From Mycolicibacterium smegmatis (GTDB taxonomy: Bacteria; Actinomycetota; Actinomycetes; Mycobacteriales; Mycobacteriaceae), in contig NZ_LN831039.1 in assembly GCF_001457595.1 (NCBI RefSeq), positions 6,390,001 to 6,422,000 of the forward strand: 32,000 nucleotides of DNA. The letters are read 5' to 3'. Of the stretch, positions 10,665 through 21,541 are shown one piece after another. The number at the start of each line of letters is the position of its first letter. The stretch's first letter is position 1. The notes below the pieces were generated by a model that was not told the DNA's origin, made no database searches, and was given only the letters and a program-made list of their open reading frames with translations. The translations under genes were made by a program, and so were the position numbers.

Positions 10665-10691
10665 TGGCGGTGGCGGAGGGATTTGAACCCT
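10665..10691. repeat. attL core: 27-bp copy of the tRNA-Ser 3' end (TGGCGGTGGCGGAGGGATTTGAACCCT)
   Basis: Identical to 21302-21328. The flanking bases differ on both sides. Confidence 0.85.
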
Positions 10692-10771
10692 ATTCAGCTA
10701 CCAGGTCAGAGGATCAAAAGCGTCTCTACCTGCATGCCGTCATAACTGGGGATCACCACGGTTACCTGTAA

Positions 10772-10802
10772 CCGTGGGCAAATTGTGGGCAGATTGTGGG
10801 CA
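10772..10802 (+). promoter_or_regulatory. Three 11-bp-phased direct repeats YYGTGGGCA (candidate arm-type integrase binding sites, attL arm)
   Basis: CCGTGGGCA (10772), TTGTGGGCA (10783) and TTGTGGGCA (10794). The same motif with the same phasing occurs at 21213-21243. Confidence 0.45.
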
Positions 10803-10829
10803 CGCGGCGTGTCGTCGACCGCTTGCCGC

Positions 10830-11258
10830 TCATACCCGTTCAGGCGCGCCCGGCTCGTACCGCATGACCACGGCGCGGTCGCGGCGCAGCGATAGCCACC
10901 ACGGGCCGTCGATTGCGGCCTGACGTTCGACGGCCTCCCATCGAGCAGTCAGCCTAACGAGCTGTTCCCAGGCTGGCCTTGTGCCGATGTCGCCGTGCAA
11001 GTGCACGGTTTTGAGCTTGTGTGTGATCGCAAGACTTGCCTCAGTCGGGCGGGTGCGGAGTCGCTTGTCATTGGTGACCACGATCCAACCCCGGTCACCG
11101 ACGACAGGTATCCAATGGGGATCCAAAATCCCGGCGTATAGAAGTTCATCCACTGGCGGGCGACTGAACCGCGCCGTGTCACGCCGCACCGCCACAAGCC
11201 CGTTACCTAGGCGCAGCAGGTTCTCGTCAACGACGTAGGTCACCTGGTCCAGGTCCAT
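10830..11258 (-). CDS. PIN-like / DUF5615-type putative toxin nuclease
   Basis: 142 aa. N-terminal acidic motif 'VVDENL' and 'WIVVTNDKRL', as in PIN-like Mut7-C/DUF5615 proteins. It starts 13 nt downstream of a DUF433-type gene. Confidence 0.5.
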   Translation of the reverse strand: MDLDQVTYVVDENLLRLGNGLVAVRRDTARFSRPPVDELLYAGILDPHWIPVVGDRGWIVVTNDKRLRTRPTEASLAITHKLKTVHLHGDIGTRPAWEQLVRLTARWEAVERQAAIDGPWWLSLRRDRAVVMRYEPGAPERV

Positions 11259-11271
11259 GCCCGTCGCCTGA

Positions 11272-11976
11272 CTACGCAGCCAGCTTGTACTTCTTGACGT
11301 AGTCGATGGCTGCCTGAACCTGCTCCATGCTCAGCCCGTAGTCGGCGGCGAGGTCTTCGTGGCGTTCCCCCGCGTTGGCCATCCCCGCGATTGTGGCCAC
11401 CGATACACGCCTTCCGATAAAGGTCGGCTGCCCGCTGTAGCGGTCGGGGCTGATCACGATCTCGGGGAAGTCACGATCAGGCCGTAGCTCGCTCACGACC
11501 TTCTCGCCCCGTTCGTCCTGCGCCAAGGAAGCGTGCAATATCAGCTCCCTGCCTGAGCCAAATAACAGCTGCTGGCCGGTGCGGACCACCATCTCATCCT
11601 CAGACAGACCGACCTCTTCGCCGCTGATCGTCAGGTCACGGGCATGGACGGCCAGATAGGGACGCAGGTGCGCTAGCGGATAGTCAAGGCCGTAAATACG
11701 GCGCAGCCCGTCGATAGCGGCGCGCAGCCGCGCAGTCGGGATGTTCAGGTTGCGGTACTCGGCGAGAATTCGCGTCTCCACGAACTCGCCCCACGTCGCC
11801 CATTCCGTGTCACGCGGCGCGACACGCAGAATCGGCGGGTAAGCGGTGCCGCTGCGCTGATAGCCGTTGATCCAGCGGCGGGCCGTGCCTGCCGAGAGGC
11901 CGATCAGCCTGTCTACCTCCGCATACAGGTAGACCTCGCGGTCGAGCATCGAGGTAACCGACATGCGCGCAAGCAT
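11272..11976 (-). CDS. HTH (MerR-like) + DUF433-domain protein, putative antitoxin/regulator
   Basis: N-terminal '[24 protein letters not shown]' (HTH). C-terminal '[46 protein letters not shown]' resembles DUF433. The start is uncertain (ATGs at 11976, 11964 and 11949). Confidence 0.55.
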
Positions 11977-12225
11977 GACACAGAGGTATCAGCCGAGACC
12001 GACAAAGATAGACAGAGGCGGACAACCCGCGTGTCAATGAAGCACAGTCACACCCACGTCGCGCCGTATGGGCCTGTGCTTGTCGGCTCCGCGACAAGCG
12101 CGCCGGTTGGGTCGCATGACCACCTCGTTGCACTTGCGAAAGCTGATGGAAACGACTGGCCAGAGAACGCTCTCGGAGGGCGGAGCGCCGTCGGGTAGCG
12201 GGCACGCAGTGCCTCGTCCCAGCGG

Positions 12226-15200
12226 CTACTCCCAGGCCCAATGGGGTACAGCCTCCAACCGCTTCTGTCGATCCCGACTCAGCTTCCCCTGGGCAAAAAA
12301 TCGCCGCTGGACATGAACCCATTGTCCGAGCTTCACGCCATTGACGACTTCCGAGCGGGGAATTCGGTCGGTCTTGTGCTGCTTCACATAGTTGACAAAC
12401 AACGCAAGATTGCCATCCCACACAGCAGCCTTGCTGTCCCATGCCCAGCCAGGCAACGCCTCCAGGCGCTCGCGTCGTTCCGGTGCAATTACGTCAGAGA
12501 CTGCGTCGTGTCGCTGGACACTGACCCATTGTCCGAGTCGTACTCCTTGTTCGACATGCCTCTGCGGCACACGCGCGTGTCCCTCCCGCGCAGTGAACTT
12601 CTCCAGCATCACGAACCTCTCCTCCCAGACATCGTGGGACAGGGTGGTCCAGGTCCACCCCGGCAGCTCCTCAAGCCTGCGCTGACGCGCGGGATCGAGC
12701 CGACCTTTGGCGTAGGTCCCCTTCTGGGTCGCAATCCAAAAACCGAGTCGGACGCCGTCGACGGTGTAACTCTGCGGGACCCGCGAGGTGCCATGTTCGG
12801 CGGTGTACTCCCGAAGGAGCATGAATGCTCGCTCCCATTTTTCGGCGTGCGGGTCCCAGGACCAGCCCGGCAGAGCCTCTAAGCGTCGCGCACGCTCTTC
12901 GCTAAGCGTCCCGGCCCGGTAGAAGTCCCGTTGCTTAGGCACCCATGAACCCAGCGGGTATCCGTCATGGTGATGCCTCGCGGGTACTTGAGCGGTGCCA
13001 TGATGCTCCGTGTAGTCGACAAGTTGGCGGAAACCCTCCTCCCACTTCGAATCGTTCACTGCCCACACCCAACCGGGGAGCGCCTCAAGCCGAGCTGCGT
13101 AGTCGGCGCGCAATTTGCCCTTGTTTTTCAGGGTGCGTTGCTGATTGACCCAGCCACCGATTCGAAAGCCGTCGGAATCCGAGGACTTTGTCGGTGCGCA
13201 GCTCCCATGTGCAGCTGCGTATTCCGCAAGCTTTTGGTAGTTGCCCTCCCACAAGGCATCGTGTATGCCCCATACCCAGCCAGGCAGTGCCTCCAAGCGG
13301 GCGGTCCGGTCCGGTCCTAACCGCCCCCTGGAAAACGACGAGCGCTGCGAGTAGGCCCACTTCCCGAGCTGGTATCCGTCCGCAGGGTCGACATATGTCC
13401 GCACCAATCGTGCCGTGCCGTGCGCCTCGGTGTACGCCTGAAGGCGTCGAAACCCTTCTTCCCAACGTGATTCGCGCGCTTCCCAAGCCCAGCCTGGTAG
13501 TGCCTCCAACCGTGCCTGACGTTCCTTGCTCATCTGGCCGTCGCGGTAGACCGTACGCTGGATGGTGGCCCATTGGCCTAGTTTGTAGCCCTCGGCGGAC
13601 TTGAACTTCTGCGCCACCATGGCGTCACCATGGCGCTGGACGTACTCCTGAAGGTGGCGGAAACCTTGCTCCCACTGGTCTGTGAGAGCGTCCCAAGTCC
13701 AGTCGGGGAATTCCTCAAGAAGGCGAGCACGAGCGGGATCAAGGTCGCCCCTATTGCGGTGGTATCGCTGTTGCGCCACCCACTGCCCAAGTCGGAGTCC
13801 GTCATATTTTTCCAATGCGGCTAATCGCGTATGGCCGTGCTCGGCGACGTACTTTTTCAGTTGCTCATACCAGAAGGGCCACTTGTCATCCCGCGTGCTC
13901 CACGTCCAACCGGGCAGTGCCTCTAACCGCTGTATCCGCTCTGCGGGGAGGCCCCCCTTCTTATATGCGGAACGTTGGGTAGTGACCCATGCGCCGACCT
14001 GAAATCCGTTGACCGTGGCGTCTTTTGAAATGAGAGCAGTACCGCTCTGCGCTACGTAATCTTGAAGCCTGGCGAAGCCTTCCTCCCACAGGTCGTCACG
14101 CGGATTCCACGTCCAACCAGACAGCTCCTCAAGTCGCAGTTGGCGTTCTTGCGATAGTTTCCCACTGTTGCGGTGTGATCTCTGCTTCGTCACCCAGGCC
14201 GCGAGCCTATTGTCGCCATCCAACGACGTGTACGAGGGACGGGCATGACCATGCTCAGCAACATGCTTTGTCAACAGCCCGAACCAGAACTCCCACGGTG
14301 CGGTGGTCGCATCCACCATATGGACCTTGAATGCGTTGACAAATTCTGTGCCCACAGTGGCTGGCACATCGAAGTGAATCTTGCTCGGAAGCCGAGGTTT
14401 GCTTCCCTTGCGTCCCATTTCCCGTCGCAGGGCGTCAAGATGCTCACCGAGTTCGGTGTCATGCGCTCTGAGAGCTTTGATGACATCCCAAACCGGTTTG
14501 AAGGCCGAGGAGTCCAGTGCGGCATCAGCATCTTCGTCGGGGTCGATAAACACAGGGATGACAACGGTGCCAATTGTTTTGGTCTCGGACTTTCGAATCG
14601 CGCGACCTACAGCCTGCACGATGTCCACCTCGGAGCGCCGCGGGTCGATGAAGGCCACGCCGTCGAGACTGGGCACATCAACGCCCTCGGCCAAACAGCG
14701 GGCATTGGCAAGCAGGCCGCGCTCACCGTCACCGAGTCTCTTCAGATGCTGGAGCAGGACATGGCGTTCGCCCGCCGACATCTCCCCCGAGGCGTGCTGG
14801 GACCACAAGCTACCTCTAGGGCGTTGCCGGGCAGGCATCCACTCCAGCACGCCGGGCATCGACTCAGCGAACTTTCTGGCCGCCCTGACGCGGCTGTGGA
14901 AGCTGATCAACCGACGCAGATCGTACTTGCGCATCGCCTTGGCCAAGCCGATTTGCCCCGCCAGTGAACGAGCATCCGTAGGCGTCTCGTCACTCAGCCT
15001 GACAGGTAGACCGCGTTTAGCCCAATCGCGGTAGGTCGCGTCATCGACACCGATGATTGCCACCTGATAATCAGTGAGTAGCTTGCGTTCGATGGCCTCC
15101 GCAAAGCTCAGCCGATGAAACACGTTCCCGAATTTGATCTGGTCGTCCATCGACGCGACCTCGTAGTCCGCCTCTTGAGCCTGGCGAAGTATGCGCCCGG

Positions 15201-16239
15201 TGAAGTAGCGCGGCGTCGCCGTCATGAATAGCCGCCGCTTCGCCCTGATCGCCTTGGGGTTGAGCACGGTGCCGAAGTCGGAGGACACCGGCCCAGCGAC
15301 TCGGTGTGCCTCGTCGGCGATCACTAGATCGAACTGGGGCACCCGGCCCAACTTGAAAGCGGCGGCGATCTGGGGTGAGGACTGGTAGGTGGCGAAGACG
15401 ACGCGTGGCCCCGACCGCTTCCGCAGAAACGCCGCGATAACTTCCGGGTCAGTGTCCGCTGGCTCTCCGAGATAGCTGGTGTGGGAAATCGCTGCGTCCT
15501 CGTCAAGCGCGACGGTCTCATCACTGCACACCGGCAGCGCATCGAAAGGACGTTTGATGTTGGCGGTTCGCCACTCCTTCATCGTCTGCTTCAGCAGCGA
15601 TAGTGATGGCACCAAGACGAGGGTGCGTGTGGCGGCCAATTCCTCTTTGATGAACCACGCCGTCAGGGTCTTGCCGGTGCCGCACGCCATGATCAGCTGC
15701 CCACGATCAGCGGTCTTGAACCCCTCGATCACGTCCCTGATCGCGTCCTGTTGGTAATCGTGTGGCTCGCGCGGCTCGGGCACTCTGGCTGGACGCAGGT
15801 CTGTCAGCTTGGCTGGCCACTCGGTGAAGTCCTCTAGTTCTGTCAGACCGATGAAGGTGACCCCGAGGTCCTCCATCGTGCGCTGTGCGGTTGGAGACAA
15901 CTTGTCGGTCGTCGCCATCAGCATTCGGTAAGCGAAGTCGAACCGGCCCGCTTCCGCGAGGAACTTGTTCACCTCGGTTCTGGTCACCGTGTTCTCGTAT
16001 GCTTTGGCCTGAATAGCCCACAGCCGGCCTTCGGTGTCTTCCGCAACGAGGTCGATGCCAGCATCGATACCCCAGTTACCTGGCCAGTCCTTCCACAACC
16101 ACACCCGACGCAGCAACTGCTTGTATTGGCCTGTGTCGTTTTCGAGGAACCATTTGCAGACGATCTCGAACTGATCGCCCTTCCTCTTCCGGTTGACCGG
16201 GTCGAACTGTGCCTTGAGATCGCTGAACGTCCCCCCCAT
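12226..16239 (-). CDS. Mrr-like PD-(D/E)xK nuclease + SF2 (ResIII/DEAH) helicase + 10 tandem helicase-associated (HA) domains
   Basis: ATG at 16239; the ORF-track 5' extension is Arg/Pro-rich and was rejected. Nuclease motif 'GIDLVAEDTEGRLWAIQAKAY'. Helicase motifs are I 'ACGTGKT', II 'VIADEAHRV', III 'MTATPR' and VI 'QAVGRAIR'. These are followed by 10 repeats of ~69 aa ending in 'RLEALPGWxW'. Confidence 0.85.
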   Translation of the reverse strand: MGGTFSDLKAQFDPVNRKRKGDQFEIVCKWFLENDTGQYKQLLRRVWLWKDWPGNWGIDAGIDLVAEDTEGRLWAIQAKAYENTVTRTEVNKFLAEAGRFDFAYRMLMATTDKLSPTAQRTMEDLGVTFIGLTELEDFTEWPAKLTDLRPARVPEPREPHDYQQDAIRDVIEGFKTADRGQLIMACGTGKTLTAWFIKEELAATRTLVLVPSLSLLKQTMKEWRTANIKRPFDALPVCSDETVALDEDAAISHTSYLGEPADTDPEVIAAFLRKRSGPRVVFATYQSSPQIAAAFKLGRVPQFDLVIADEAHRVAGPVSSDFGTVLNPKAIRAKRRLFMTATPRYFTGRILRQAQEADYEVASMDDQIKFGNVFHRLSFAEAIERKLLTDYQVAIIGVDDATYRDWAKRGLPVRLSDETPTDARSLAGQIGLAKAMRKYDLRRLISFHSRVRAARKFAESMPGVLEWMPARQRPRGSLWSQHASGEMSAGERHVLLQHLKRLGDGERGLLANARCLAEGVDVPSLDGVAFIDPRRSEVDIVQAVGRAIRKSETKTIGTVVIPVFIDPDEDADAALDSSAFKPVWDVIKALRAHDTELGEHLDALRREMGRKGSKPRLPSKIHFDVPATVGTEFVNAFKVHMVDATTAPWEFWFGLLTKHVAEHGHARPSYTSLDGDNRLAAWVTKQRSHRNSGKLSQERQLRLEELSGWTWNPRDDLWEEGFARLQDYVAQSGTALISKDATVNGFQVGAWVTTQRSAYKKGGLPAERIQRLEALPGWTWSTRDDKWPFWYEQLKKYVAEHGHTRLAALEKYDGLRLGQWVAQQRYHRNRGDLDPARARLLEEFPDWTWDALTDQWEQGFRHLQEYVQRHGDAMVAQKFKSAEGYKLGQWATIQRTVYRDGQMSKERQARLEALPGWAWEARESRWEEGFRRLQAYTEAHGTARLVRTYVDPADGYQLGKWAYSQRSSFSRGRLGPDRTARLEALPGWVWGIHDALWEGNYQKLAEYAAAHGSCAPTKSSDSDGFRIGGWVNQQRTLKNKGKLRADYAARLEALPGWVWAVNDSKWEEGFRQLVDYTEHHGTAQVPARHHHDGYPLGSWVPKQRDFYRAGTLSEERARRLEALPGWSWDPHAEKWERAFMLLREYTAEHGTSRVPQSYTVDGVRLGFWIATQKGTYAKGRLDPARQRRLEELPGWTWTTLSHDVWEERFVMLEKFTAREGHARVPQRHVEQGVRLGQWVSVQRHDAVSDVIAPERRERLEALPGWAWDSKAAVWDGNLALFVNYVKQHKTDRIPRSEVVNGVKLGQWVHVQRRFFAQGKLSRDRQKRLEAVPHWAWE
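12229..14295 (-). repeat. Coding tandem array: 10 HA-domain repeats (65-71 aa each, 689 aa total)
   Basis: I counted the repeats in the translated ORF. The consensus is W-E-x-x-F-x-x-L-x-x-Y-x-x-x-H-G ... G-x-x-L-G-x-W-V-x-x-Q-R ... R-x-x-R-L-E-A-L-P-G-W-x-W. Confidence 0.8.
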
Positions 16240-16454
16240 GGGGACGAGATTAGACGCGAAAACCGCAGACTTGTCCGAAAGGGAAGCCAGCGCGCAGCGC
16301 GCCCGCGACTCGATGGCGGGGGGAGGAGGTCTCCCCCGGGGCAAATGTCGGCTACAGGCACCGCTGCCCGCCGTTGGCGGGTGACCACGACGGGCAGCGG
16401 CACCACTGTCCCGGAGGGTTGGAGTAGCCGGTTGGCGACACCTCCGGGCAGGTC

Positions 16455-17318
16455 TTAGCTTCCCTCCATGCCGACGCGCACGACGGCCTGCTGATGGGGG
16501 AACCCGATGCCGACGCGCAGCACGCAGCGGATGCCCGTGCGGTCGCTGGAGAACGCGAACGAGCTGTCGGCGATCACCTCGGCGTCCTGCCGGATCACGA
16601 CGAAGCACTTGTCCCGGGGGATGAGCCACATTGCGCCAGCGGTGACGGCGGGCGAGCTGTACAGCGGCACGCCGAGCACGCTGCGGCCCGTGGCTCGCGT
16701 CGCGTCAGGTCCAAGTAGCGGCTGGTTGCTGTCGGCCGTGACTTTGCTTGTCGCCACGGCCAGGACATCGGTCGGGCTGCCGACCAAGGCCATGTTGGAC
16801 AAGCCGTCCACGACGTTGGTGGCGAGCACGCCGACGTTCTCGGCGAGGCTGACTGCCTCGGCGAACACGTCCAAGCTGCCGTCAAAGGTGAGCGTGGTCT
16901 CCTGCACGTTGGTCAAGCTTTCGACACCGTCCGGGCCGTTGGCCACGCTGTCACCGAAATAGGCCGCGTCCAGCTTGATGCGGAGGTCTCTCACCAGACC
17001 CTCACCGACCACCTGCAACGCGCTCGGATCGGAGTCGGCCAGGAGTTCGTTGGAGACCACAACGAGCGACTTGAGGCCGGCCGGAGTAACGACCAGCTCT
17101 TCCAAATCCGGGTCAGTGACCGGGATTTCCTGTCCTTCCGCTACCCAATTGTTCTGTGCGTCAGTGACAACGATGGGAAACCTTGTGCTGTGCGAAGCGG
17201 TCTCCACGACGGTGGAGACCTGCGTGGCGACAGACGCGCGGATGAGCGGCTGCACAACGAGGTCTTGGACATCTTGGGGCGCCAGTATGGCCGCGCCGTT
17301 AGCGGTGAGCAAGGGCAT
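16455..17318 (-). CDS. Phage major capsid protein, HK97-fold family
   Basis: 287 aa. It has the typical 'LKSLVVVSNELLADS' block, 'DAAYFGD' and a C-terminal region like Phage_capsid family members. RBS GGAGG lies 6 nt upstream of the ATG at 17318. Confidence 0.75.
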   Translation of the reverse strand: MPLLTANGAAILAPQDVQDLVVQPLIRASVATQVSTVVETASHSTRFPIVVTDAQNNWVAEGQEIPVTDPDLEELVVTPAGLKSLVVVSNELLADSDPSALQVVGEGLVRDLRIKLDAAYFGDSVANGPDGVESLTNVQETTLTFDGSLDVFAEAVSLAENVGVLATNVVDGLSNMALVGSPTDVLAVATSKVTADSNQPLLGPDATRATGRSVLGVPLYSSPAVTAGAMWLIPRDKCFVVIRQDAEVIADSSFAFSSDRTGIRCVLRVGIGFPHQQAVVRVGMEGS

Positions 17319-17447
17319 GAATGCCTCCGAAGGTGAGCGTGGTCTGATGTGACTTGCCCGGTGACCGCAGATCAGGCCGGGATGCCCTCGGGGCGTACGT
17401 GCAGCGGATGCGGGCCACGGGCCGGAACACCAACCGCGACAGCCAGT

Positions 17448-17948
17448 CTAGCGGCCTTTGAGTGCCTTACTCCAGGACGCTTTACCGGGCGGCTGTCCGC
17501 TGCCAGTGCCTTGCTGCCGGTTCGGTTGGGGCGGTCGGCCCTTGGGTGGCACGCGGAACTCTCGTGCGGTGGCTGTGACGGCCTCGGACAACTTGGTGCC
17601 GTCGATCAAACCGTCGTCACCGACGAGGCTGTCTACGGTGTGCCCGGCTGCTGTGAGTAAGCGCGGGTCTAGACCTGCTGCCTGCACAGCGTTCTCCACG
17701 ATGGCCGCGCGGGTGCGTTGCAGGGTGTCGCGCAGCTCGTCCAGCTCGCGGCGCGCCTCGTTGCGCTCGCGCCGATACCTGGCCTCCCGGTTCGCCCTGC
17801 CGCCCTCGTCCTGATTTTGCGTCGTCTCGTCAAGTTCGCTCGTCGGCGTATGGTCGTCATCGGTGCCGGTCGGTGCGTTTTCGCCGGCCGTGTGGCTGTC
17901 GGGCGGATTGTCTTGTCGTGCCGGCGTTTTCGTGTCAGAGATGGTCAT
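17448..17948 (-). CDS. Putative capsid scaffolding protein
   Basis: It lies immediately upstream of the capsid gene. It has a charged coiled-coil-like core 'REARYRRERNEARRELDELRDTLQRTRAAI' with low-complexity ends. The ATG at 17948 has GGAGGA upstream and an ATGA overlap with the preceding ORF. Confidence 0.5.
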   Translation of the reverse strand: MTISDTKTPARQDNPPDSHTAGENAPTGTDDDHTPTSELDETTQNQDEGGRANREARYRRERNEARRELDELRDTLQRTRAAIVENAVQAAGLDPRLLTAAGHTVDSLVGDDGLIDGTKLSEAVTATAREFRVPPKGRPPQPNRQQGTGSGQPPGKASWSKALKGR

Positions 17949-18247
17949 GGGTTTTGTTCCTCCAGGGTTGGCCATGTTCTGCGGCGGACGCCGTTGGACA
18001 GCCATTCCACGACGGTCGTCAGGTCGTCGGGCACCGTGTAGCCGATATGGCGCAGTAGTGCACGTTCGGTGGGCGTGGCGGGCCGCGTTCGGGTCACGCT
18101 GGCGCGGTAGTGCCGGTTCTCGTAGTCGGCATATGCCGTGGCATCCTCGGCACGCTGCACGGCGTCGGGCAAGTGAGCCAACACTAGTAGGCCGCGTCGG
18201 TGGTCGGGTCTGTGCTCGCCGACGCCGGTCAAGTCAATTTCGGTCAT
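17945..18247 (-). CDS. Hypothetical protein (element operon)
   Basis: 100 aa with ATGA overlaps at both ends (18244-18247 and 17945-17948). I recognised no motif. Confidence 0.45.
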   Translation of the reverse strand: MTEIDLTGVGEHRPDHRRGLLVLAHLPDAVQRAEDATAYADYENRHYRASVTRTRPATPTERALLRHIGYTVPDDLTTVVEWLSNGVRRRTWPTLEEQNP

Positions 18248-18666
18248 GGCAGAGCCTCCGCTACGGCTCGGTCTAGGTCGTCTTGCTGGTGATCGTGAAC
18301 CGCAACTTCTGGATGAAGCTGGACATCTCGACGAACTCCCCGGAGTTCATGGTCTGCAACTACTACCGCATGTTCGTCACGATCTTCTAGTTCTGCGCGT
18401 ACACCACCTCGGAACTCGCCCGCGACCACGCCGACAAGATCAGGCTCAGAGTCAGCCCACCGGCCACACTCGGCCTTAGCGGGACAACGGCGACACACGG
18501 CAATGCACTCGGCAATCCGAATCCGGCTGCCGCGCTCAGCCTCATGGAAACGGCCACGCACGCCGACACACGCGGCACCGTCCAAGCGCGGCACCCCGGT
18601 CAGCACAACGGCAAGTAGACCGACCACGCCCGACGCCGGGACGCGGGCCGGGTGAACACGGCTCAC
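18244..18666 (-). CDS. WhiB-like (Wbl) Fe-S transcription factor with acidic/His-rich C-terminal extension
   Basis: Four-Cys pattern C-x24-C-x2-C-x5-C in 'AACVG...VCRRCPAKAECGRWA', followed by 'GVVAGE' in place of the GxWGG turn. Its 5' end shares 18663-18666 with the end of the upstream ORF; the start is uncertain. Confidence 0.6.
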   Translation of the reverse strand: MSRVHPARVPASGVVGLLAVVLTGVPRLDGAACVGVRGRFHEAERGSRIRIAECIAVCRRCPAKAECGRWADSEPDLVGVVAGEFRGGVRAELEDRDEHAVVVADHELRGVRRDVQLHPEVAVHDHQQDDLDRAVAEALP

Positions 18667-19151
18667 GGTGCGCCCTCCAGCCCGTGACGCCGACGCAACA
18701 CCGCGAACAGCGCGCCGCTTTGGTCTCCGGCGAGATAGGCGACGACGTGCCCGGCGATGACAGCGGCGGCGTGCGCGATGTCCAGGTCTGCGAACTCGGC
18801 CATGCTCATCAGCTCGTTACAGCGTCCGATGGCACCGCGTTCGTACGCCTCGGCTAGGGCGATGGCGGCAAGGCTGAGGCGTGCTTGCTCGTCGGGTGCG
18901 CCGGTCGCGGTGGCCAGCGCGTGCACATCGGCGCGCAACTTGTCGAAGCGTACGGCGGCGTCGGGACCGGCCAACAAACCGGCCAGCGTGCGCACGGCGG
19001 CGATACGCAGCCACGCCGATTCACTTGCGGAGTCGGCCATGACGTTCGACGCTGCGTCAGCGAGGCCGTTGGCAGCAAGCTCAGCGGCACGGACGACAAC
19101 GGCGAACACTGCGGCCGGTGCCTCGTCGTCCCATCCCGGCTCAGTCCTCAT
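18663..19151 (-). CDS. Hypothetical Ala-rich protein (element operon)
   Basis: 162 aa. Its ends share 4 nt with each neighbouring ORF (19148-19151 and 18663-18666). No motif recognised. Confidence 0.45.
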   Translation of the reverse strand: MRTEPGWDDEAPAAVFAVVVRAAELAANGLADAASNVMADSASESAWLRIAAVRTLAGLLAGPDAAVRFDKLRADVHALATATGAPDEQARLSLAAIALAEAYERGAIGRCNELMSMAEFADLDIAHAAAVIAGHVVAYLAGDQSGALFAVLRRRHGLEGAP

Positions 19152-19693
19152 GCGTACTCCTCAAAGGGATTCGGTCCAGCGCCGCGCCACTTCGGCAACT
19201 CGGTGAGCGACGGAGGACCGTGCAAACCGGCAGCCGTTGGTACCCGCTCCCCTTCATTGCCTGCCTTCCTTCCTTCCTGTGCTGTCCCCGGGGACGCTTC
19301 CCCGGGACTGTCCCCGTCGTCATCCCCGGGACTGTCCTCGTCGTCGGCACCCCCCGCCAACTTCTCAGCGCGCTGCTTGGCCTTCTTCACCCGCTCCCGC
19401 TGCCGAATCCTCTCCAAGGTCTCCAGCTCGCTGCGGGCGGTCTGGGTGGCCGCGTAGTCGGTGATCAACCAGCCGTCCGACTGCGGGGTGAACAGTCCGG
19501 CGTCCACGAACGCCTTAGCGGCGTTGGCCGACCAATGCGGGATGAGTCCAACGTCCTCGCGTTCGATCCGGCCATCGGTGCGGTTGGTGACCGACCACAG
19601 CAGCGCGTTGACGAACGTCCTGTAGTGCTCGGCTGAGAGCCGTTGCAGGCGGCGGTCATTCAACCACCGTTCCGGAATTCGGGCGTCGGTCAC
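19148..19693 (-). CDS. Hypothetical protein with acidic low-complexity C-terminal half (possible DNA-binding / replication-organiser role, unproven)
   Basis: GTG at 19693 lies 4 nt after the Xis-like stop. The N-terminal ~100 aa are globular ('WLNDRRLQRLSAEHYRTFVNALLWSV'). A coiled-coil-like basic stretch and a D/E/G/P-rich tail follow. Confidence 0.45.
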   Translation of the reverse strand: MTDARIPERWLNDRRLQRLSAEHYRTFVNALLWSVTNRTDGRIEREDVGLIPHWSANAAKAFVDAGLFTPQSDGWLITDYAATQTARSELETLERIRQRERVKKAKQRAEKLAGGADDEDSPGDDDGDSPGEASPGTAQEGRKAGNEGERVPTAAGLHGPPSLTELPKWRGAGPNPFEEYA

Positions 19694-19697
19694 GGTG

Positions 19698-19901
19698 TCA
19701 GCGGCCCGCGTTCTGCACGTTGGCGGCGATGAACTCGTCCAGATCGGCGAGTCTGTAGCGGACGCTGCGGCCGATTCGCACGTACTTCGGGCCTTCACCC
19801 AAGTAGCGCATATTCGCCAAGCGCGCGGGGGTAGTGCTCAGGTACTCGGCGGCCTGGTCAGTTTTGATCAGCCCTGAGATTCGTTCTTCAGCCACGATCA
19901 C
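19698..19901 (-). CDS. Excisionase / AlpA-like helix-turn-helix protein
   Basis: 'TDQAAEYLSTTPARLANMRYLGEGPKYVRIGRSVRYRLADLDEFI' is the typical Xis/MerR-superfamily HTH_17 layout. The start is uncertain (GTG at 19901 or 19895; the ORF-track start at 19991 is a TTG). Confidence 0.6.
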   Translation of the reverse strand: MIVAEERISGLIKTDQAAEYLSTTPARLANMRYLGEGPKYVRIGRSVRYRLADLDEFIAANVQNAGR

Positions 19902-20065
19902 CAGCGTAATACCGAGCGTGGCACGCTTCCCGTGAGAGACGTTGCGCACGAACAGTTTTCGGCGCCTTCGTAGGTTGACAGTTGCTGACAATGGCTGCCA
20001 GAGATACGACAGACGCTGACAGCGAATCCGAGTGCGGCGACAGCGAAATTGGTTCGGCGTGTTGC

Positions 20066-21181
20066 TCAGTTCGGCGTGTCGCGCACTACCTCCGGGTCCG
20101 TCTTGTGCCCGCCACGCGCACGATCCAGCGCGGCCGCAACGTCGTCAAGGTCGGCGTCGAACAGGTCGGCGTAGGTGTCCAGCGTGACCTTGGCGGACTT
20201 GTGGCCAAGCATCCGCTGAAGCGCCAACACGTTCACGCCTGCCGAGACAGCCAGCGACGCGCAGGTGTGGCGGAGATCGTGCGGAGTGACGGCCTGCACC
20301 CCGGCGCGCTTCACGGCGGCAGCGAACCATCCCCCGTCCGACTTCGGGCGTGGCAGATACCCGTCACCGGCCGCGCTGAACACCAGATCGTTGGGAGTCT
20401 TGCCCGCGCACAGCACCGACAGCTCATCAAGTACGAACGCCGGAACCGGCACCGACCGCGCCGTACGGCCCTTGGTCGGCCCTACAGCGTGTTCTACGCC
20501 GAGCTGCACGGCGTTCTCGTGGATCGACAGCCGACGCCGCAGGAACTCCACGTCACGCACGCGCAGCGCGACAGCCTCACCCCACCGGATGCCCGTGTAG
20601 GCCAGCGTGAGCACCAGCGCGCGATGCTGGCCGCACTCGTCGGCCAGCCGCGCCACGTCGTCGGCTGACAAGTAGACGTGGCGGCGCGCCGTCTTACGCG
20701 GCAGATTGCCGACACCCTTGGCCGGGTTGGCCACCAACCGCCTGCCCTTCACGGCGTCGGCCAGGATGCCCGACAGGACGCCGTGCGCGCGCAGCACCGT
20801 GGTCGAACCCGCGCCACCGCGCACCATGCCGGTGATCCACGCCTCTACGCCGAGCTGGTCAATATCAGCGACGGTCGCCGACGCCCATCGCGGGGCGACG
20901 TGGACCCGCCACGCTGACTCCAGCATCCGGTAGTGAGAACGCGCGGTCGCGTGTTCCTTACGCGCCAACCAGTCGGCCGACAGCTCGCCCACCGTCACCC
21001 GTCCGAGCGACGGGGCGACGTACTCGCCGCGCATCTTGGAGACCTCCACCTCGGCGGCGAACGCCTCGGCCTCCCGCTTGGTCTTGAATCCGCGCCGGTC
21101 GGTCTGTCGGCGGTCGGGGGTGCGGTAGCGCACGCGGTACCGCTTGCCGTGCGCCGTCTGGTACTGGACAACCTGAGCCAT
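20066..21181 (-). CDS. int: Tyrosine recombinase (phage integrase family)
   Basis: ATG at 21181 ('MAQVVQYQTAHGKRYRVRYR', an arm-binding-type N-terminus). The C-terminal catalytic signature is 'TPHDLRHTCASL...LGHKSAKVTLDTYADL' (H-x-x-R ... H ... Y). It is adjacent to the tRNA. Confidence 0.9.
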   Translation of the reverse strand: MAQVVQYQTAHGKRYRVRYRTPDRRQTDRRGFKTKREAEAFAAEVEVSKMRGEYVAPSLGRVTVGELSADWLARKEHATARSHYRMLESAWRVHVAPRWASATVADIDQLGVEAWITGMVRGGAGSTTVLRAHGVLSGILADAVKGRRLVANPAKGVGNLPRKTARRHVYLSADDVARLADECGQHRALVLTLAYTGIRWGEAVALRVRDVEFLRRRLSIHENAVQLGVEHAVGPTKGRTARSVPVPAFVLDELSVLCAGKTPNDLVFSAAGDGYLPRPKSDGGWFAAAVKRAGVQAVTPHDLRHTCASLAVSAGVNVLALQRMLGHKSAKVTLDTYADLFDADLDDVAAALDRARGGHKTDPEVVRDTPN

Positions 21182-21212
21182 GCGCCGCACGGTACTCACG
21201 AAGCGCGACAAG

Positions 21213-21243
21213 TTGTGGGCAAAATGTGGGCAAACCGTGGTCG
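21213..21243 (+). promoter_or_regulatory. 11-bp-phased direct repeats TTGTGGGCA / ATGTGGGCA / CCGTGGTCG (candidate arm-type integrase sites, attR arm)
   Basis: Read directly. Motif, orientation and phasing match 10772-10802. The third copy is degenerate. Confidence 0.4.
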
Positions 21244-21301
21244 GACGGCTTGCCAGCAAACGCAAAAACCGCCCTTACCTGCGCTGGCAGGCGGGCGGCT
21301 T

Positions 21302-21328
21302 TGGCGGTGGCGGAGGGATTTGAACCCT
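21302..21328. repeat. attR core: 27-bp repeat forming the 3' end of the intact tRNA-Ser
   Basis: Identical to 10665-10691. Confidence 0.85.
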
Positions 21329-21392
21329 CGGTGGGGGGTTACCCCACACACGCTTTCGAGGCGTGCTCCTTAGGCCGCTCGGACACGCCACC
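21302..21392 (-). tRNA. tRNA-Ser (anticodon CGA), 91 nt with encoded CCA
   Basis: I folded the reverse complement by hand: acceptor GGTGGCG/CGCCACC, anticodon arm CACGC-CTCGAAA-GCGTG (CGA), long variable arm TGTGGGGTAACCCCCCAC, T-arm GAGGG-TTCAAAT-CCCTC, discriminator G, CCA. Confidence 0.9.
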
Positions 21393-21485: not shown

Positions 21486-21541
21486 GCAACCCGCCAAGAG
21501 TGCACACTCGATCGAGCAACCCGCCAAGAGTGCACACTCGA
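21486..21541. repeat. Two tandem copies (30-bp period) of GCAACCCGCCAAGAGTGCACACTCGA
   Basis: The 26-nt copies at 21486-21511 and 21516-21541 are identical. Each contains the near-palindrome GAGTG-CA-CACTC. The repeat lies between the tadA stop and the tRNA-Ser 5' side. Confidence 0.7.

Follow-up and report, generated by a model that had tools for sequence, protein, structure and literature searches.

Mrr nuclease-helicase protein with ten HA repeats, carried by a capsid-encoding tRNA-Ser island of Mycolicibacterium smegmatis: a candidate defence nuclease related to Type ISP restriction enzymes

In the analysed stretch of the Mycolicibacterium smegmatis genome (32,000 nucleotides, the window below), a 10.6-kb capsid-encoding island is integrated at tRNA-Ser and carries a large gene for a 1337-aa protein. 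This gene is an accessory cargo in a variable slot of the island. By homology, the N-terminal 605 residues of its product are a nuclease-translocase unit, specifically that of Type ISP restriction-modification enzymes, and they are followed by an array of helicase-associated (HA) repeats. Homology and genomic context together make the protein a strong candidate for a single-gene defence nuclease of a new type.

Table 1. Features of the island and of its large cargo gene (window coordinates)
Feature	Position	Strand	Basis or remark
Distal att repeat, exact 27-bp copy of tRNA-Ser 3′ end	10665..10691	.	direct repeat
Swappable 5.5-kb cargo cassette: large gene + DUF433 + PIN_10	10815..16291	.	blastn breakpoints vs M. 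phlei L166
PIN_10 domain protein, 142 aa	10830..11258	-	PIN_10 1.2e-11 (Pfam)
DUF433 / HTH protein, 234 aa	11272..11976	-	DUF433 5e-14 (Pfam)
Large gene, 1337-aa Mrr nuclease / SF2 motor / 10xHA protein	12226..16239	-	stop codon 12226-12228
Ten HA (PF03457) repeats, each a three-helix unit, aa 643-1336	12232..14313	-	Pfam, AlphaFold2
Motor-array linker, aa 606-642	14314..14424	-	family recombination junction, sliding-window identity
SF2 helicase-like ATPase motor, Type ISP dsDNA translocase homologue, aa 150-605	14425..15792	-	4XQK/5FFJ, PADLOC
Mrr-family PD-(D/E)xK nuclease domain, aa 1-149	15793..16239	-	Pfam, alignment to LlaBIII 4XQK
TAATCT, possible -10 element	16247..16252	-	7 nt upstream of ATG; read from sequence
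HK97-family major capsid protein	16455..17318	-	Phage_capsid 7.4e-23 (Pfam)
Tyrosine integrase	20066..21265	-	Phage_integrase 3.4e-20 (Pfam), phrog_1 6.4e-68
tRNA-Ser(CGA); its 3′ 27 nt (21302-21328) are the integrase-proximal att repeat	21302..21392	-	

The carrier island and its cargo slot

The island lies between two exact 27-bp direct repeats (Table 1) and has an integrase gene (its public annotation starts at 21181), a Rep-like gene (phrog_2447), the capsid gene and a scaffold-like gene. Searches of Pfam and PHROG found no terminase, portal or tail genes in it, which implies dependence on a helper. Mycobacterial candidate PICIs have been defined in PMC10654092, and the features used there are all present here: a small att-bounded island, an integrase together with a major capsid gene, and a tRNA site. 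The carrier is thus a candidate mycobacterial PICI.

Does the large gene belong to the working backbone of this island? The sister island of M. phlei (L166) occupies the same att site and has 89% DNA identity over the backbone (blastn). The similarity ends 53 bp upstream of the large-gene ATG and starts again beside att. The capsid gene, a conserved backbone gene directly upstream of the slot, is 97% identical in M. phlei, but the large gene is missing there, and exactly that slot contains a Type II MTase with an unknown ORF, a CapP/RmrA-like peptidase with another unknown ORF, and an NYN gene. The M. obuense island has both parts of a Type II R-M system in the slot, the REase (1.2e-33) and the MTase (1.5e-56), and the system is complete. 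Because sister islands fill the slot with Type II R-M or other genes, the large gene is cargo and not the replication enzyme of the island. The initial annotation had described it as island cargo lying between the structural genes and attL, and both points hold: it lies between the capsid gene and the distal att, with the DUF433/PIN_10 pair intervening. The PIN_10 protein is probably a toxin-like nuclease and the DUF433 / HTH protein its antitoxin-like partner; the latter was not linked to homologues of the large gene elsewhere. No MTase gene was found in the cassette. The GC content noticed earlier as low is indeed so, with 60.6% in the large gene versus 66.6% in the island backbone and 68.5% in the flanking chromosome, and this deficit of 6-8 points relative to the surroundings counts in favour of a cargo or defence gene.

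Domain composition and kinship with Type ISP enzymes

The 1337-aa product is 100% identical to an M. smegmatis protein annotated as 'Helicase associated domain protein'. The ATG start ('MGGTFSDLK') agrees with the N-termini of 21 homologues, whose consensus is MGxFxDL. The longest reading frame, from a GTG at 16629, was rejected since it would overlap the capsid gene. There is no Shine-Dalgarno sequence before the ATG, and the transcript is possibly leaderless.

Pfam confirmed the three-part architecture proposed from the open reading frame, with Mrr_cat_2 at aa 38-137 (3.6e-25), ResIII at aa 158-344 (2.5e-21), Helicase_C at aa 482-550 and HA (PF03457) in ten stretches (3.7e-162). The nuclease motif quoted in the initial annotation, GIDLVAEDTEGRLWAIQAKAY, was found at aa 61-81. 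All four helicase motifs listed there are also present, namely I (GTGKT, 187-191), II (DEAH, 309-312), III (TATP, 340-343) and VI (QAVGRAIR, 542-549), and they are invariant across the family.

LlaBIII (4XQK, E=4e-90) and LlaGI (5FFJ, E=1e-65) both align with the protein over the full length of residues 4-605. The PADLOC model REase_MTase_IIG was matched over model positions 17-644 (8.6e-133), which corresponds to the first ~645 positions of Type IIG/I REase-MTase fusion models. In the alignment, E25, D59, D63, Q77 and K79 correspond to LlaGI E38, D74, D78, Q92 and K94, and they are invariant or at least 90% conserved among 22 homologues. Mutation of D74, D78 or K94 abolishes LlaGI cleavage (PMC2790908), and each of these residues is kept across the 22 homologues, as are the equivalents of the motif III Thr and motif V Arg studied in the LlaBIII motor (PMC7049714). 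The motor is 40-41% identical to those of true Type ISP enzymes. Such enzymes combine ATP-driven translocation on dsDNA with collision-dependent cleavage (PMC7049714), and we infer that the island protein would act in the same way. The initial annotation, which saw a nuclease plus a helicase, had missed the Type ISP identity of this part.

True Type ISP relatives have ISP_coupler, N6_Mtase and Type_ISP_C domains where our protein has HA repeats. Pfam gave no match in it to the coupler PF22240 at E<=0.01 (1e-45 to 1e-52 in relatives L040, L058 and L067), to N6_Mtase/Eco57I, which the true relatives possess, or to Type_ISP_C PF18135 (1e-87 to 1e-102 in relatives).

The ten HA repeats are 69-71 aa long, the protein ends one residue past the tenth, and the array DNA shows a 207-nt periodicity. 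AlphaFold2 gave a pLDDT of 85.8 for the array, and 92.2 with a pTM of 0.71 for two repeats. Repeat number ranges from 2 to 15 among homologues, and the array evolves much faster than the motor (44% versus 68% mean identity). Sliding-window comparison with two homologues gave opposite pictures: P0060 is 88-90% identical to the window protein in the nuclease and 38-56% in the array, while P0002 is 46-60% identical in the nuclease and 94-100% in the array, with the shift at about aa 600-650 in both. Arrays and motors therefore recombine independently, as restriction specificity domains do. Hypervariable array positions fall on one face of helix 2, and in these respects the array behaves like a specificity module.

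The view that HA repeats have no known function has been overtaken: for a single HA domain there is an NMR structure (2KTA), which later papers cite as DNA-binding. According to 10.1101/2024.11.13.623437, HA arrays also occur in Streptomyces TtrA and in TniQ target selectors of transposons, which makes a DNA-targeting role for HA likely. With a net charge of +14 the array is no more than mildly basic, and no structural analogue of it was found, so its ligand may also be a protein instead of DNA. On balance, the HA array is most likely a targeting module that binds DNA.

Homologues and possible role

The initial annotation had considered uniformly core-genome housekeeping homologues, unlinked to mobile elements, as evidence against its proposal. 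The homologues found are instead patchily distributed (Actinomycetota, Betaproteobacteria, Chlamydiae, Prochlorococcus, Planctomycetota and others) and occur on plasmids and integrative elements. The family is matched by 797 plasmid records; in 50,697 phage genomes there were only 3 weak matches. One homologue belongs to a different integrative element that occupies the same tRNA-Ser site. Another adjoins DRT UG33 (1.6e-172), one lies near IS21/TrwC and one near ParDE/Fic/IS110/TrwC, one adjoins a NACHT gene on a linear plasmid, and one adjoins RES/DUF2971. The initial annotation had asked about enrichment in prophages or defence islands; the homologues are seen on plasmids and integrative elements and beside DRT, NACHT and toxin-antitoxin genes, and the family is nearly absent from sequenced phages. 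Among 123 pooled neighbours there was no conserved partner gene. It counts against a defence reading that the neighbours, in raw counts pooled across phyla, are mostly ordinary or unknown genes, and that no methyltransferase recurs near the homologues.

A PADLOC check, proposed earlier, gave a divided answer. REase-MTase fusion models match the nuclease-motor part, but no system model of PADLOC-DB v2.0 covers the whole protein, the best reaching aa 4-604 within 1600-aa REase-MTase fusions, and none covers the HA array. Neither PADLOC, NCBIfam nor the literature consulted yielded a characterised system of Mrr-helicase-HA-array architecture, as the initial annotation had supposed.

In the mechanism that we propose, the HA array would engage a target, most likely DNA, whereupon the motor would hydrolyse ATP and translocate along dsDNA, and the Mrr nuclease would cut, like those of LlaGI and LlaBIII, on stalling of the motor or on collision between two enzymes. 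With no methyltransferase, self-protection cannot be methylation by the same protein; it must come either from limited expression or from the array's choice of target, which would be DNA that is foreign by its modification, its structure or some other feature. The role would lie in conflict between mobile elements, with phage or other incoming DNA restricted to the benefit of island and host. We lean modestly towards this joint reading of an HA-targeted Type ISP-type motor nuclease that restricts foreign DNA. A bolder extension, which we regard as rather unlikely, is that HA arrays form a modular nucleic-acid code, in which each ~69-aa three-helix repeat reads a short piece of DNA through the hypervariable face of helix 2, repeats are gained, lost and exchanged as whole units, and the array alone directs a methylase-less, translocating Type ISP-type nuclease against foreign DNA. 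If so, the protein would represent a new class of innate immune nucleases encoded by one gene, and its array a new repeat-based DNA-targeting scaffold common to TtrA and transposon target selectors.

Nucleases of other satellites favour packaging of the satellite's own DNA. Our protein might likewise be a helper-interference nuclease, expressed as a late gene after helper induction, degrading or nicking helper (or host) DNA so that island DNA is preferentially packaged, and forming no constitutive barrier in uninfected cells. The large gene lies 215 bp downstream of the capsid gene on the same strand with no terminator-like site predicted between them, an island with capsid and scaffold-like genes but without terminase, portal and tail needs a helper, and expression limited in this way would keep a nuclease that has no methylase from harming its own cell. 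Nevertheless, the close sister island works without the gene and fills the slot with ordinary R-M genes, the homologues come from many settings other than satellites (plasmids, relaxase-bearing elements, chromosomal islands), the gene may have its own promoter inside the cassette, and no helper phage is known for the island, which leaves this reading improbable. The presence of HA in TtrA and TniQ target selectors makes a DNA-mobilisation role a serious non-defence rival: the array would recognise a specific DNA end or site on a mobile replicon, motor and nuclease would process DNA for transfer or establishment, and the gene would spread its carrier without attack on foreign DNA. Streptomyces TtrA is presented in 10.1101/2024.11.13.623437 as a sub-telomeric conjugation helicase or telomere recognition protein with tandem HA domains, with a cited report of a role of ttrA in conjugal transfer. 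Tandem HA domains are common to TtrA and the TniQ target selectors of telomeric transposons and, as far as that source goes, TtrA is the only HA-motor protein studied functionally, acting in DNA transfer and not in defence. Plasmid records with nuclease-less motor+HA proteins number 412 for Streptomyces and 115 for Pseudomonas, our motor shares 35% identity with that of a TtrA-like Streptomyces protein (L171), two Mrr-HA homologues of Rhodococcus are, like ttrA, close to a replicon end (at a distance of 12-19 kb in Rhodococcus), and TrwC relaxases are near two mycobacterial homologues. However, TtrA-like L171 (749 aa) and L172 (885 aa) begin with ResIII at residue 1-8 and have no Mrr domain, whereas the Mrr active site here is intact and strongly conserved, and the motor is slightly nearer to Type ISP motors. 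The small host island has no conjugation genes, its sister dispenses with the large gene, and rapid array turnover is hardly to be expected if the array recognises one fixed site on its own element. We consider mobilisation unlikely, too.

Two further readings are much less probable. A host housekeeping helicase-nuclease for DNA repair or recombination would agree with the weak family-level similarity of the motor to those of RadD, UvrB and XPB and with one Nocardia homologue that adjoins an mce operon and has no obvious mobile genes nearby. These motor matches are far under family cut-offs, though, the gene is strain-variable, of atypical GC and situated in att-bounded DNA, and a patchy, plasmid-rich distribution with hypervariable repeat arrays hardly fits housekeeping, so we see little chance for it. 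Least probable is the alternative of the initial annotation, a replicative helicase or DNA-processing enzyme of the island itself. PHROG 'DNA helicase' families do match the motor (phrog_16, 5.1e-41), and helicases in mycobacterial candidate PICIs are drawn as replication genes (PMC10654092). Yet the M. phlei island without the gene largely refutes this idea, the window island already has its Rep-like gene, the homologues in 80 other species come without any of the island's backbone genes, sequenced phages are essentially free of the family, and the motor belongs to a restriction-enzyme translocase lineage.

Comparison with known systems

Phage satellites (P4, PICIs), mycobacterial candidate PICIs and phiRv1-like elements have defence hotspots. 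The island, known here from sequence, resembles them as a small att-bounded element with integrase and capsid genes and a conserved backbone around an interchangeable slot for defence-type cargo; this likeness is that of the carrier, not of the protein. SauUSI-type ATP-dependent Type IV enzymes also unite a nuclease, an SF2 motor and a C-terminal DNA reader in one polypeptide without a methyltransferase, but the nuclease of SauUSI is of the PLD type and its reader for 5-methylcytosine is DUF3427, and the similarity is weak and limited to the motor (7CLG, 4.5e-6 over aa 483-560; PADLOC mREase_IV, 1e-6).

TtrA-like proteins of Streptomyces linear plasmids and Pseudomonas megaplasmids share the SF2 motor sub-family followed by tandem HA repeats, as well as a plasmid or mobile location. 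Those examined have no nuclease, and their repeats number 4-6, against 10 here. The role reported for them, so far as the source cited above describes it, is conjugal transfer or telomere recognition of linear replicons and not restriction, and unlike sub-telomeric ttrA on a linear replicon, the large gene sits in a tRNA-integrated chromosomal island.

The likeness to Type ISP enzymes covers a single polypeptide with an N-terminal Mrr-family nuclease (D-x3-D...QxK) and then an SF2 helicase-like ATPase, the ~600 aa that are homologous from end to end and keep the catalytic and motor residues, the location on mobile DNA, and a C-terminal specificity part that recombines independently of the motor. 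The protein differs from them in having ten HA repeats instead of the coupler, the N6-adenine methyltransferase and the Type_ISP_C target-recognition domain; with this replacement there can be no self-methylation, and the mode of DNA recognition must differ.

Nuclease-motor half and its Type ISP relatives

The large gene of the island is a real open reading frame and encodes a protein of 1337 aa (here, the window protein). Translation starts at the ATG at 16239: 21 homologues also open with MGxFxDL, and the alternative GTG at 16629, which we rejected, overlaps the capsid gene. The product is 100% identical to an annotated M. smegmatis "Helicase associated domain protein", and its exact sequence is present on only 27 contigs, CP082846.1 among them. 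The initial annotation described a three-part protein (Mrr nuclease, SF2 helicase and ten HA, or helicase-associated, repeats) encoded by a gene of low GC content. Pfam recovered all three parts, and the GC content is indeed 60.6%, vs 66.6% in the island backbone and 68.5% in the flanking chromosome. The ten HA repeats are 69–71 aa long each, and the protein terminates one residue past the last of them.

Features of the island, of the window protein and of the adjacent DNA (nt, window positions; aa, window protein)
Feature	Position	Strand	Support
Direct repeat, distal copy	10665-10691		exact, 27 bp
DUF433/PIN_10 pair	10830-11976	-	
Large gene	12226-16239	-	
Mrr_cat_2	aa 38-137	-	Pfam 3.6e-25
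ResIII	aa 158-344	-	Pfam
Helicase_C	aa 482-550	-	Pfam
HA (PF03457), ten stretches	aa 643-1336	-	Pfam 3.7e-162
HK97-type capsid gene		-	
Scaffold-like gene		-	
Small unknown genes, one WhiB-like		-	
WhiB-like ORF, candidate gene	18244-18666		Pfam 2.6e-5; phrog_472 5e-10
Rep-like gene		-	
Tandem pair TCCCCGGGACTGTCCCCGTCGTC, in Rep-like ORF	19299-19345		near-exact, 23 bp
HTH_17 excisionase-like gene		-	
Tyrosine integrase		-	
Direct repeat, tRNA-Ser(CGA) 3′ end	21302-21328		exact, 27 bp
Two copies of GCAACCCGCCAAGAGTGCACACTCGA, 30 bp apart	21486-21541		exact, 26 bp

Residues 4–605 align without large gaps to residues 14–656 of LlaBIII (4XQK, E=4e-90) and also to LlaGI (5FFJ, 1e-65). According to two papers (PMC3553950; PMC7049714) these are Type ISP restriction-modification enzymes which protect lactococci from phage, with Mrr nuclease, SF2 ATPase, coupler, adenine methyltransferase and target-recognition domain in one polypeptide. 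Mutagenesis of LlaGI showed that D74, D78 and K94 are essential for cleavage and that E38 and Q92 contribute (PMC2790908). The corresponding residues are D59, D63, K79, E25 and Q77; among 22 homologues each is either invariant or conserved to at least 90%, and the same holds for the residues of Walker A, DEAH, TATP and motif VI and for the Arg of motif V.

In true Type ISP relatives from genomes (~1600 aa) the motor is followed by ISP_coupler, N6_Mtase and Type_ISP_C. A Pfam search found none of these three in the window protein, where the start of the HA array occupies the position of the coupler. The window protein thus combines a nuclease-motor derived from Type ISP enzymes with a C-terminal module of another kind, and it lacks a methyltransferase. 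With three defining features missing, it should not be filed as Type ISP.

No characterised system of this architecture had been known to the initial annotation, which proposed a PADLOC check. PADLOC holds no model spanning the whole protein: the first ~645 positions of its 1600-aa restriction-methylase fusion models match aa 4–605 only (8.6e-133). NCBIfam has no model near cut-off, and our literature search returned no paper on the Mrr-motor-HA combination in a defence context or on the assembly accessions, so the statement holds for these sources.

Other C-terminal ends occur on the same chassis. Three Planctomycetota MAG loci (L022, L023, L027) have ~450 C-terminal residues without Pfam match and represent a third type of module; in L022 and L023, the two compared, the motor is 55% identical to that of the window protein. 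Two 11-kb "Listeria phage" records (OR848216.1, OR846882.1) encode a Type ISP-like nuclease-motor with 33% identity over aa 4–605 and, judging by their size, may be satellites with restriction cargo, parallel to the island.

Structure and variation of the HA array

The AlphaFold2 model of the whole array is locally confident (pLDDT 85.8), but its global shape is undefined (pTM 0.34); a two-repeat unit reached pLDDT 92 and pTM 0.71. In the predicted repeat, a helix of 20 residues and a short hairpin loop precede a 13-residue helix with LGxWVxxQR, and a helix of 8 residues closes the unit. In 1184 repeats, taken from 120 homologues, a near-invariant scaffold (W7, L14, G22, L37, G38, W40, Q44, R45, R57, L61, W67, W69) was found, and positions 39, 42, 43, 46 and 47 were among the most variable; these lie together on one side of helix 2, with the conserved face on the other.

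The only solved HA structure is a single domain (NMR, 2KTA), which later papers cite as DNA-binding. Foldseek found nothing significant in PDB for the 704-aa array model (best E 0.02); a TAL effector (E 0.69) was among its weak matches to helical repeats. For the confident two-repeat model it returned zero matches and missed 2KTA itself, so the search is of limited sensitivity for small helical domains. The net charge of the array, only +14, does not discriminate between DNA and protein; we therefore infer, rather than observe, that the ligand is DNA or possibly protein.

How has the array changed relative to the enzyme half? Repeat number is 5–15 in the closest 120 homologues and 2–13 across phyla. 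Repeats correspond by position only in the nearest subclade, and even there arrays differ by whole repeats. Mean identity is 44% in the array vs 68% in the enzyme half, so the array changes much faster. Against the homologue P0060 the nuclease is 88–90% identical and the array 38–56%; against another, P0002, the nuclease is 46–60% and the array 94–100% identical, with the change-over at ~aa 600–650 in both. The two halves have separate histories. Type I and Type ISP specificity domains behave in the same way, fast and independently of the motor; PMC3553950 gives >95% sequence homology between LlaGI and LlaBIII over the first three domains.

The carrier island and the mobility of the gene

The island (10.6 kb) lies between two copies of a direct repeat at tRNA-Ser, and carries genes on the minus strand only. 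"Candidate PICIs", as described in a survey of Mycobacterium genomes (PMC10654092), have an integrase, a capsid gene and tRNA integration, and the whole island, 10665–21328, fits this class. It contains no terminase, portal or tail genes, although capsid and scaffold-like genes are present. Public annotation of the identical locus does not call the WhiB-like ORF, whose GC3 is unusually low (0.56). The tandem pair within the Rep-like ORF is possibly iteron-like, and the GCAACCCGCCAAGAGTGCACACTCGA copies sit immediately beyond the island, in the stretch from tRNA-Ser to a deaminase gene.

M. phlei has an island with the same backbone at the same tRNA-Ser site and a 97% identical capsid protein. 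Its DNA is 89% identical to the window from the tRNA past the capsid gene to 16292, 53 bp upstream of the ATG of the large gene, and homology returns at 10814–10663 beside the distal att. These breaks delimit a 5.5-kb cassette at 10815–16291. The M. phlei slot instead holds an NYN gene and two genes that each have an unknown partner: a Type II methyltransferase (1e-49; partner 370 aa) and a CapP/RmrA-like M78 peptidase (1.8e-22; partner 399 aa). A complete Type II pair (REase 1.2e-33, MTase 1.5e-56) fills the slot in M. obuense (capsid 87%), and an HNH gene plus an unknown gene that of M. murale. Thus the large gene is cargo, as initially proposed, and occupies a slot whose content varies. This gives mycobacterial candidate PICIs a defence-cargo slot, as in P4 and other satellites. 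The DUF433/HTH and PIN_10 genes form a toxin-antitoxin-like pair inside the swapped cassette; an obligatory linkage to the large gene was rejected, as the pair is absent beside homologues.

In the one-genome-per-species collection there are >588 relatives, and proteins with the full Mrr-motor-HA architecture are present in Actinomycetota, Betaproteobacteria, Chlamydiae, Prochlorococcus, Planctomycetota, Chloroflexota and Gemmatimonadota. Matches were found in 797 plasmid records and, weakly, in 3 of 50,697 phage genomes, none of them an actinophage. An alignment-based scan of viral contigs gave matches where single-sequence queries (capsid; window protein) gave none. Two IMG/VR contigs labelled as giant-virus MAGs (L094, L165) have HA-array helicase relatives with 25–31% identity over most of the query.

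In M. colombiense (L174, QMEU01000007.1 2731–12840) a 71% identical homologue belongs to a distinct, capsid-less integrative element at the same tRNA-Ser, adjoining Rv3753c-like and deaminase genes. The site is therefore a hotspot for integration, and the gene passes from one type of element to another. Other homologues lie beside an excisionase-like gene, AAA_25 and an adjacent defence reverse transcriptase, DRT UG33 (1.6e-172); beside IS21 and a TrwC relaxase; with ParDE, Fic, IS110 and TrwC; in Rhodococcus, on a linear plasmid with a NACHT gene; with RES, DUF2971 and TerD near a replicon end; and, in Nocardia, at one site that appears chromosomal. No partner, methyltransferase included, recurred among the 123 neighbours pooled from 23 loci across phyla. 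TIR_2 (twice), AbiH and DUF2397 appeared among many ordinary neighbours in this plain tally, which is not an enrichment test and which, listing the 25 commonest Pfam families, would not show integrases or transposases present once.

Possible functions and comparison with known systems

We moderately favour a defence nuclease, on the basis of homology and context. The HA array would engage a target, the SF2 motor would translocate along double-stranded DNA, and the Mrr nuclease would cleave upon stalling or collision, by analogy with Type ISP enzymes. If so, the question arises: How does a translocating nuclease without a methyltransferase spare its own genome? It may recognise modified or otherwise foreign DNA, as do SauUSI and END nucleases, or its expression may be confined to island induction. 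The ATG has a TAATCT hexamer 7 nt upstream and lacks a ribosome-binding site, which suggests a leaderless transcript starting within the cassette. No terminator-like site was predicted on the gene strand between the capsid gene and the large gene, and expression from within the cassette or together with the capsid gene are both possible.

Helper interference by the satellite we hold to be rather improbable. The initial annotation also offered the element's own replication enzyme. We rejected this, because the sister island does without the gene and because island backbone genes are found beside none of its homologues in 80 other species; repair or replication in general deserves little credence. 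The main non-defence rival is DNA mobilisation, to which we likewise give a low probability. In its favour, TtrA, the Streptomyces sub-telomeric conjugation helicase and telomere recognition protein, also has tandem HA domains (10.1101/2024.11.13.623437). Many plasmid matches begin at query residue ~155–161, and the Streptomyces (749 aa) and P. aeruginosa megaplasmid (885 aa) examples have ResIII, Helicase_C and 4–6 HA repeats with no nuclease domain. The window motor shares 40–41% identity with true Type ISP motors and 35% with those of such TtrA-like proteins.

The P. aeruginosa form with six HA repeats (L172) is conserved on megaplasmids, in ~115 Pseudomonas plasmid records. Mrr-motor-HA homologues of R. 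qingshengii (L173, linear plasmid) and R. wratislaviensis (L175, CP150489.1) lie 12–19 kb from a replicon end, resembling the reported near-end position of ttrA.

Should the Mrr-motor-HA proteins restrict phage or plasmids, they would be a widespread, methylase-independent, single-gene type of defence, missing from current catalogues. The family is large and uncharacterised and ties together several questions on HA repeats; direct testing is possible in M. smegmatis, the standard host of the largest phage collection.

Some TniQ target selectors also carry tandem HA domains, according to the same telomeric-transposon preprint (10.1101/2024.11.13.623437), and together with TtrA they support DNA targeting by HA arrays. 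The link between Type ISP enzymes, HA repeats, TtrA and TniQ suggests that these arrays are interchangeable targeting modules. It joins three subjects treated separately so far: the Type ISP enzymes, the uncharacterised HA repeat of thousands of bacterial "helicases", and the TtrA/TniQ target selectors. Compared with these known systems, what is new here, as far as sequence indicates, is that a translocating nuclease of the restriction type carries a new targeting module and lacks modification activity.
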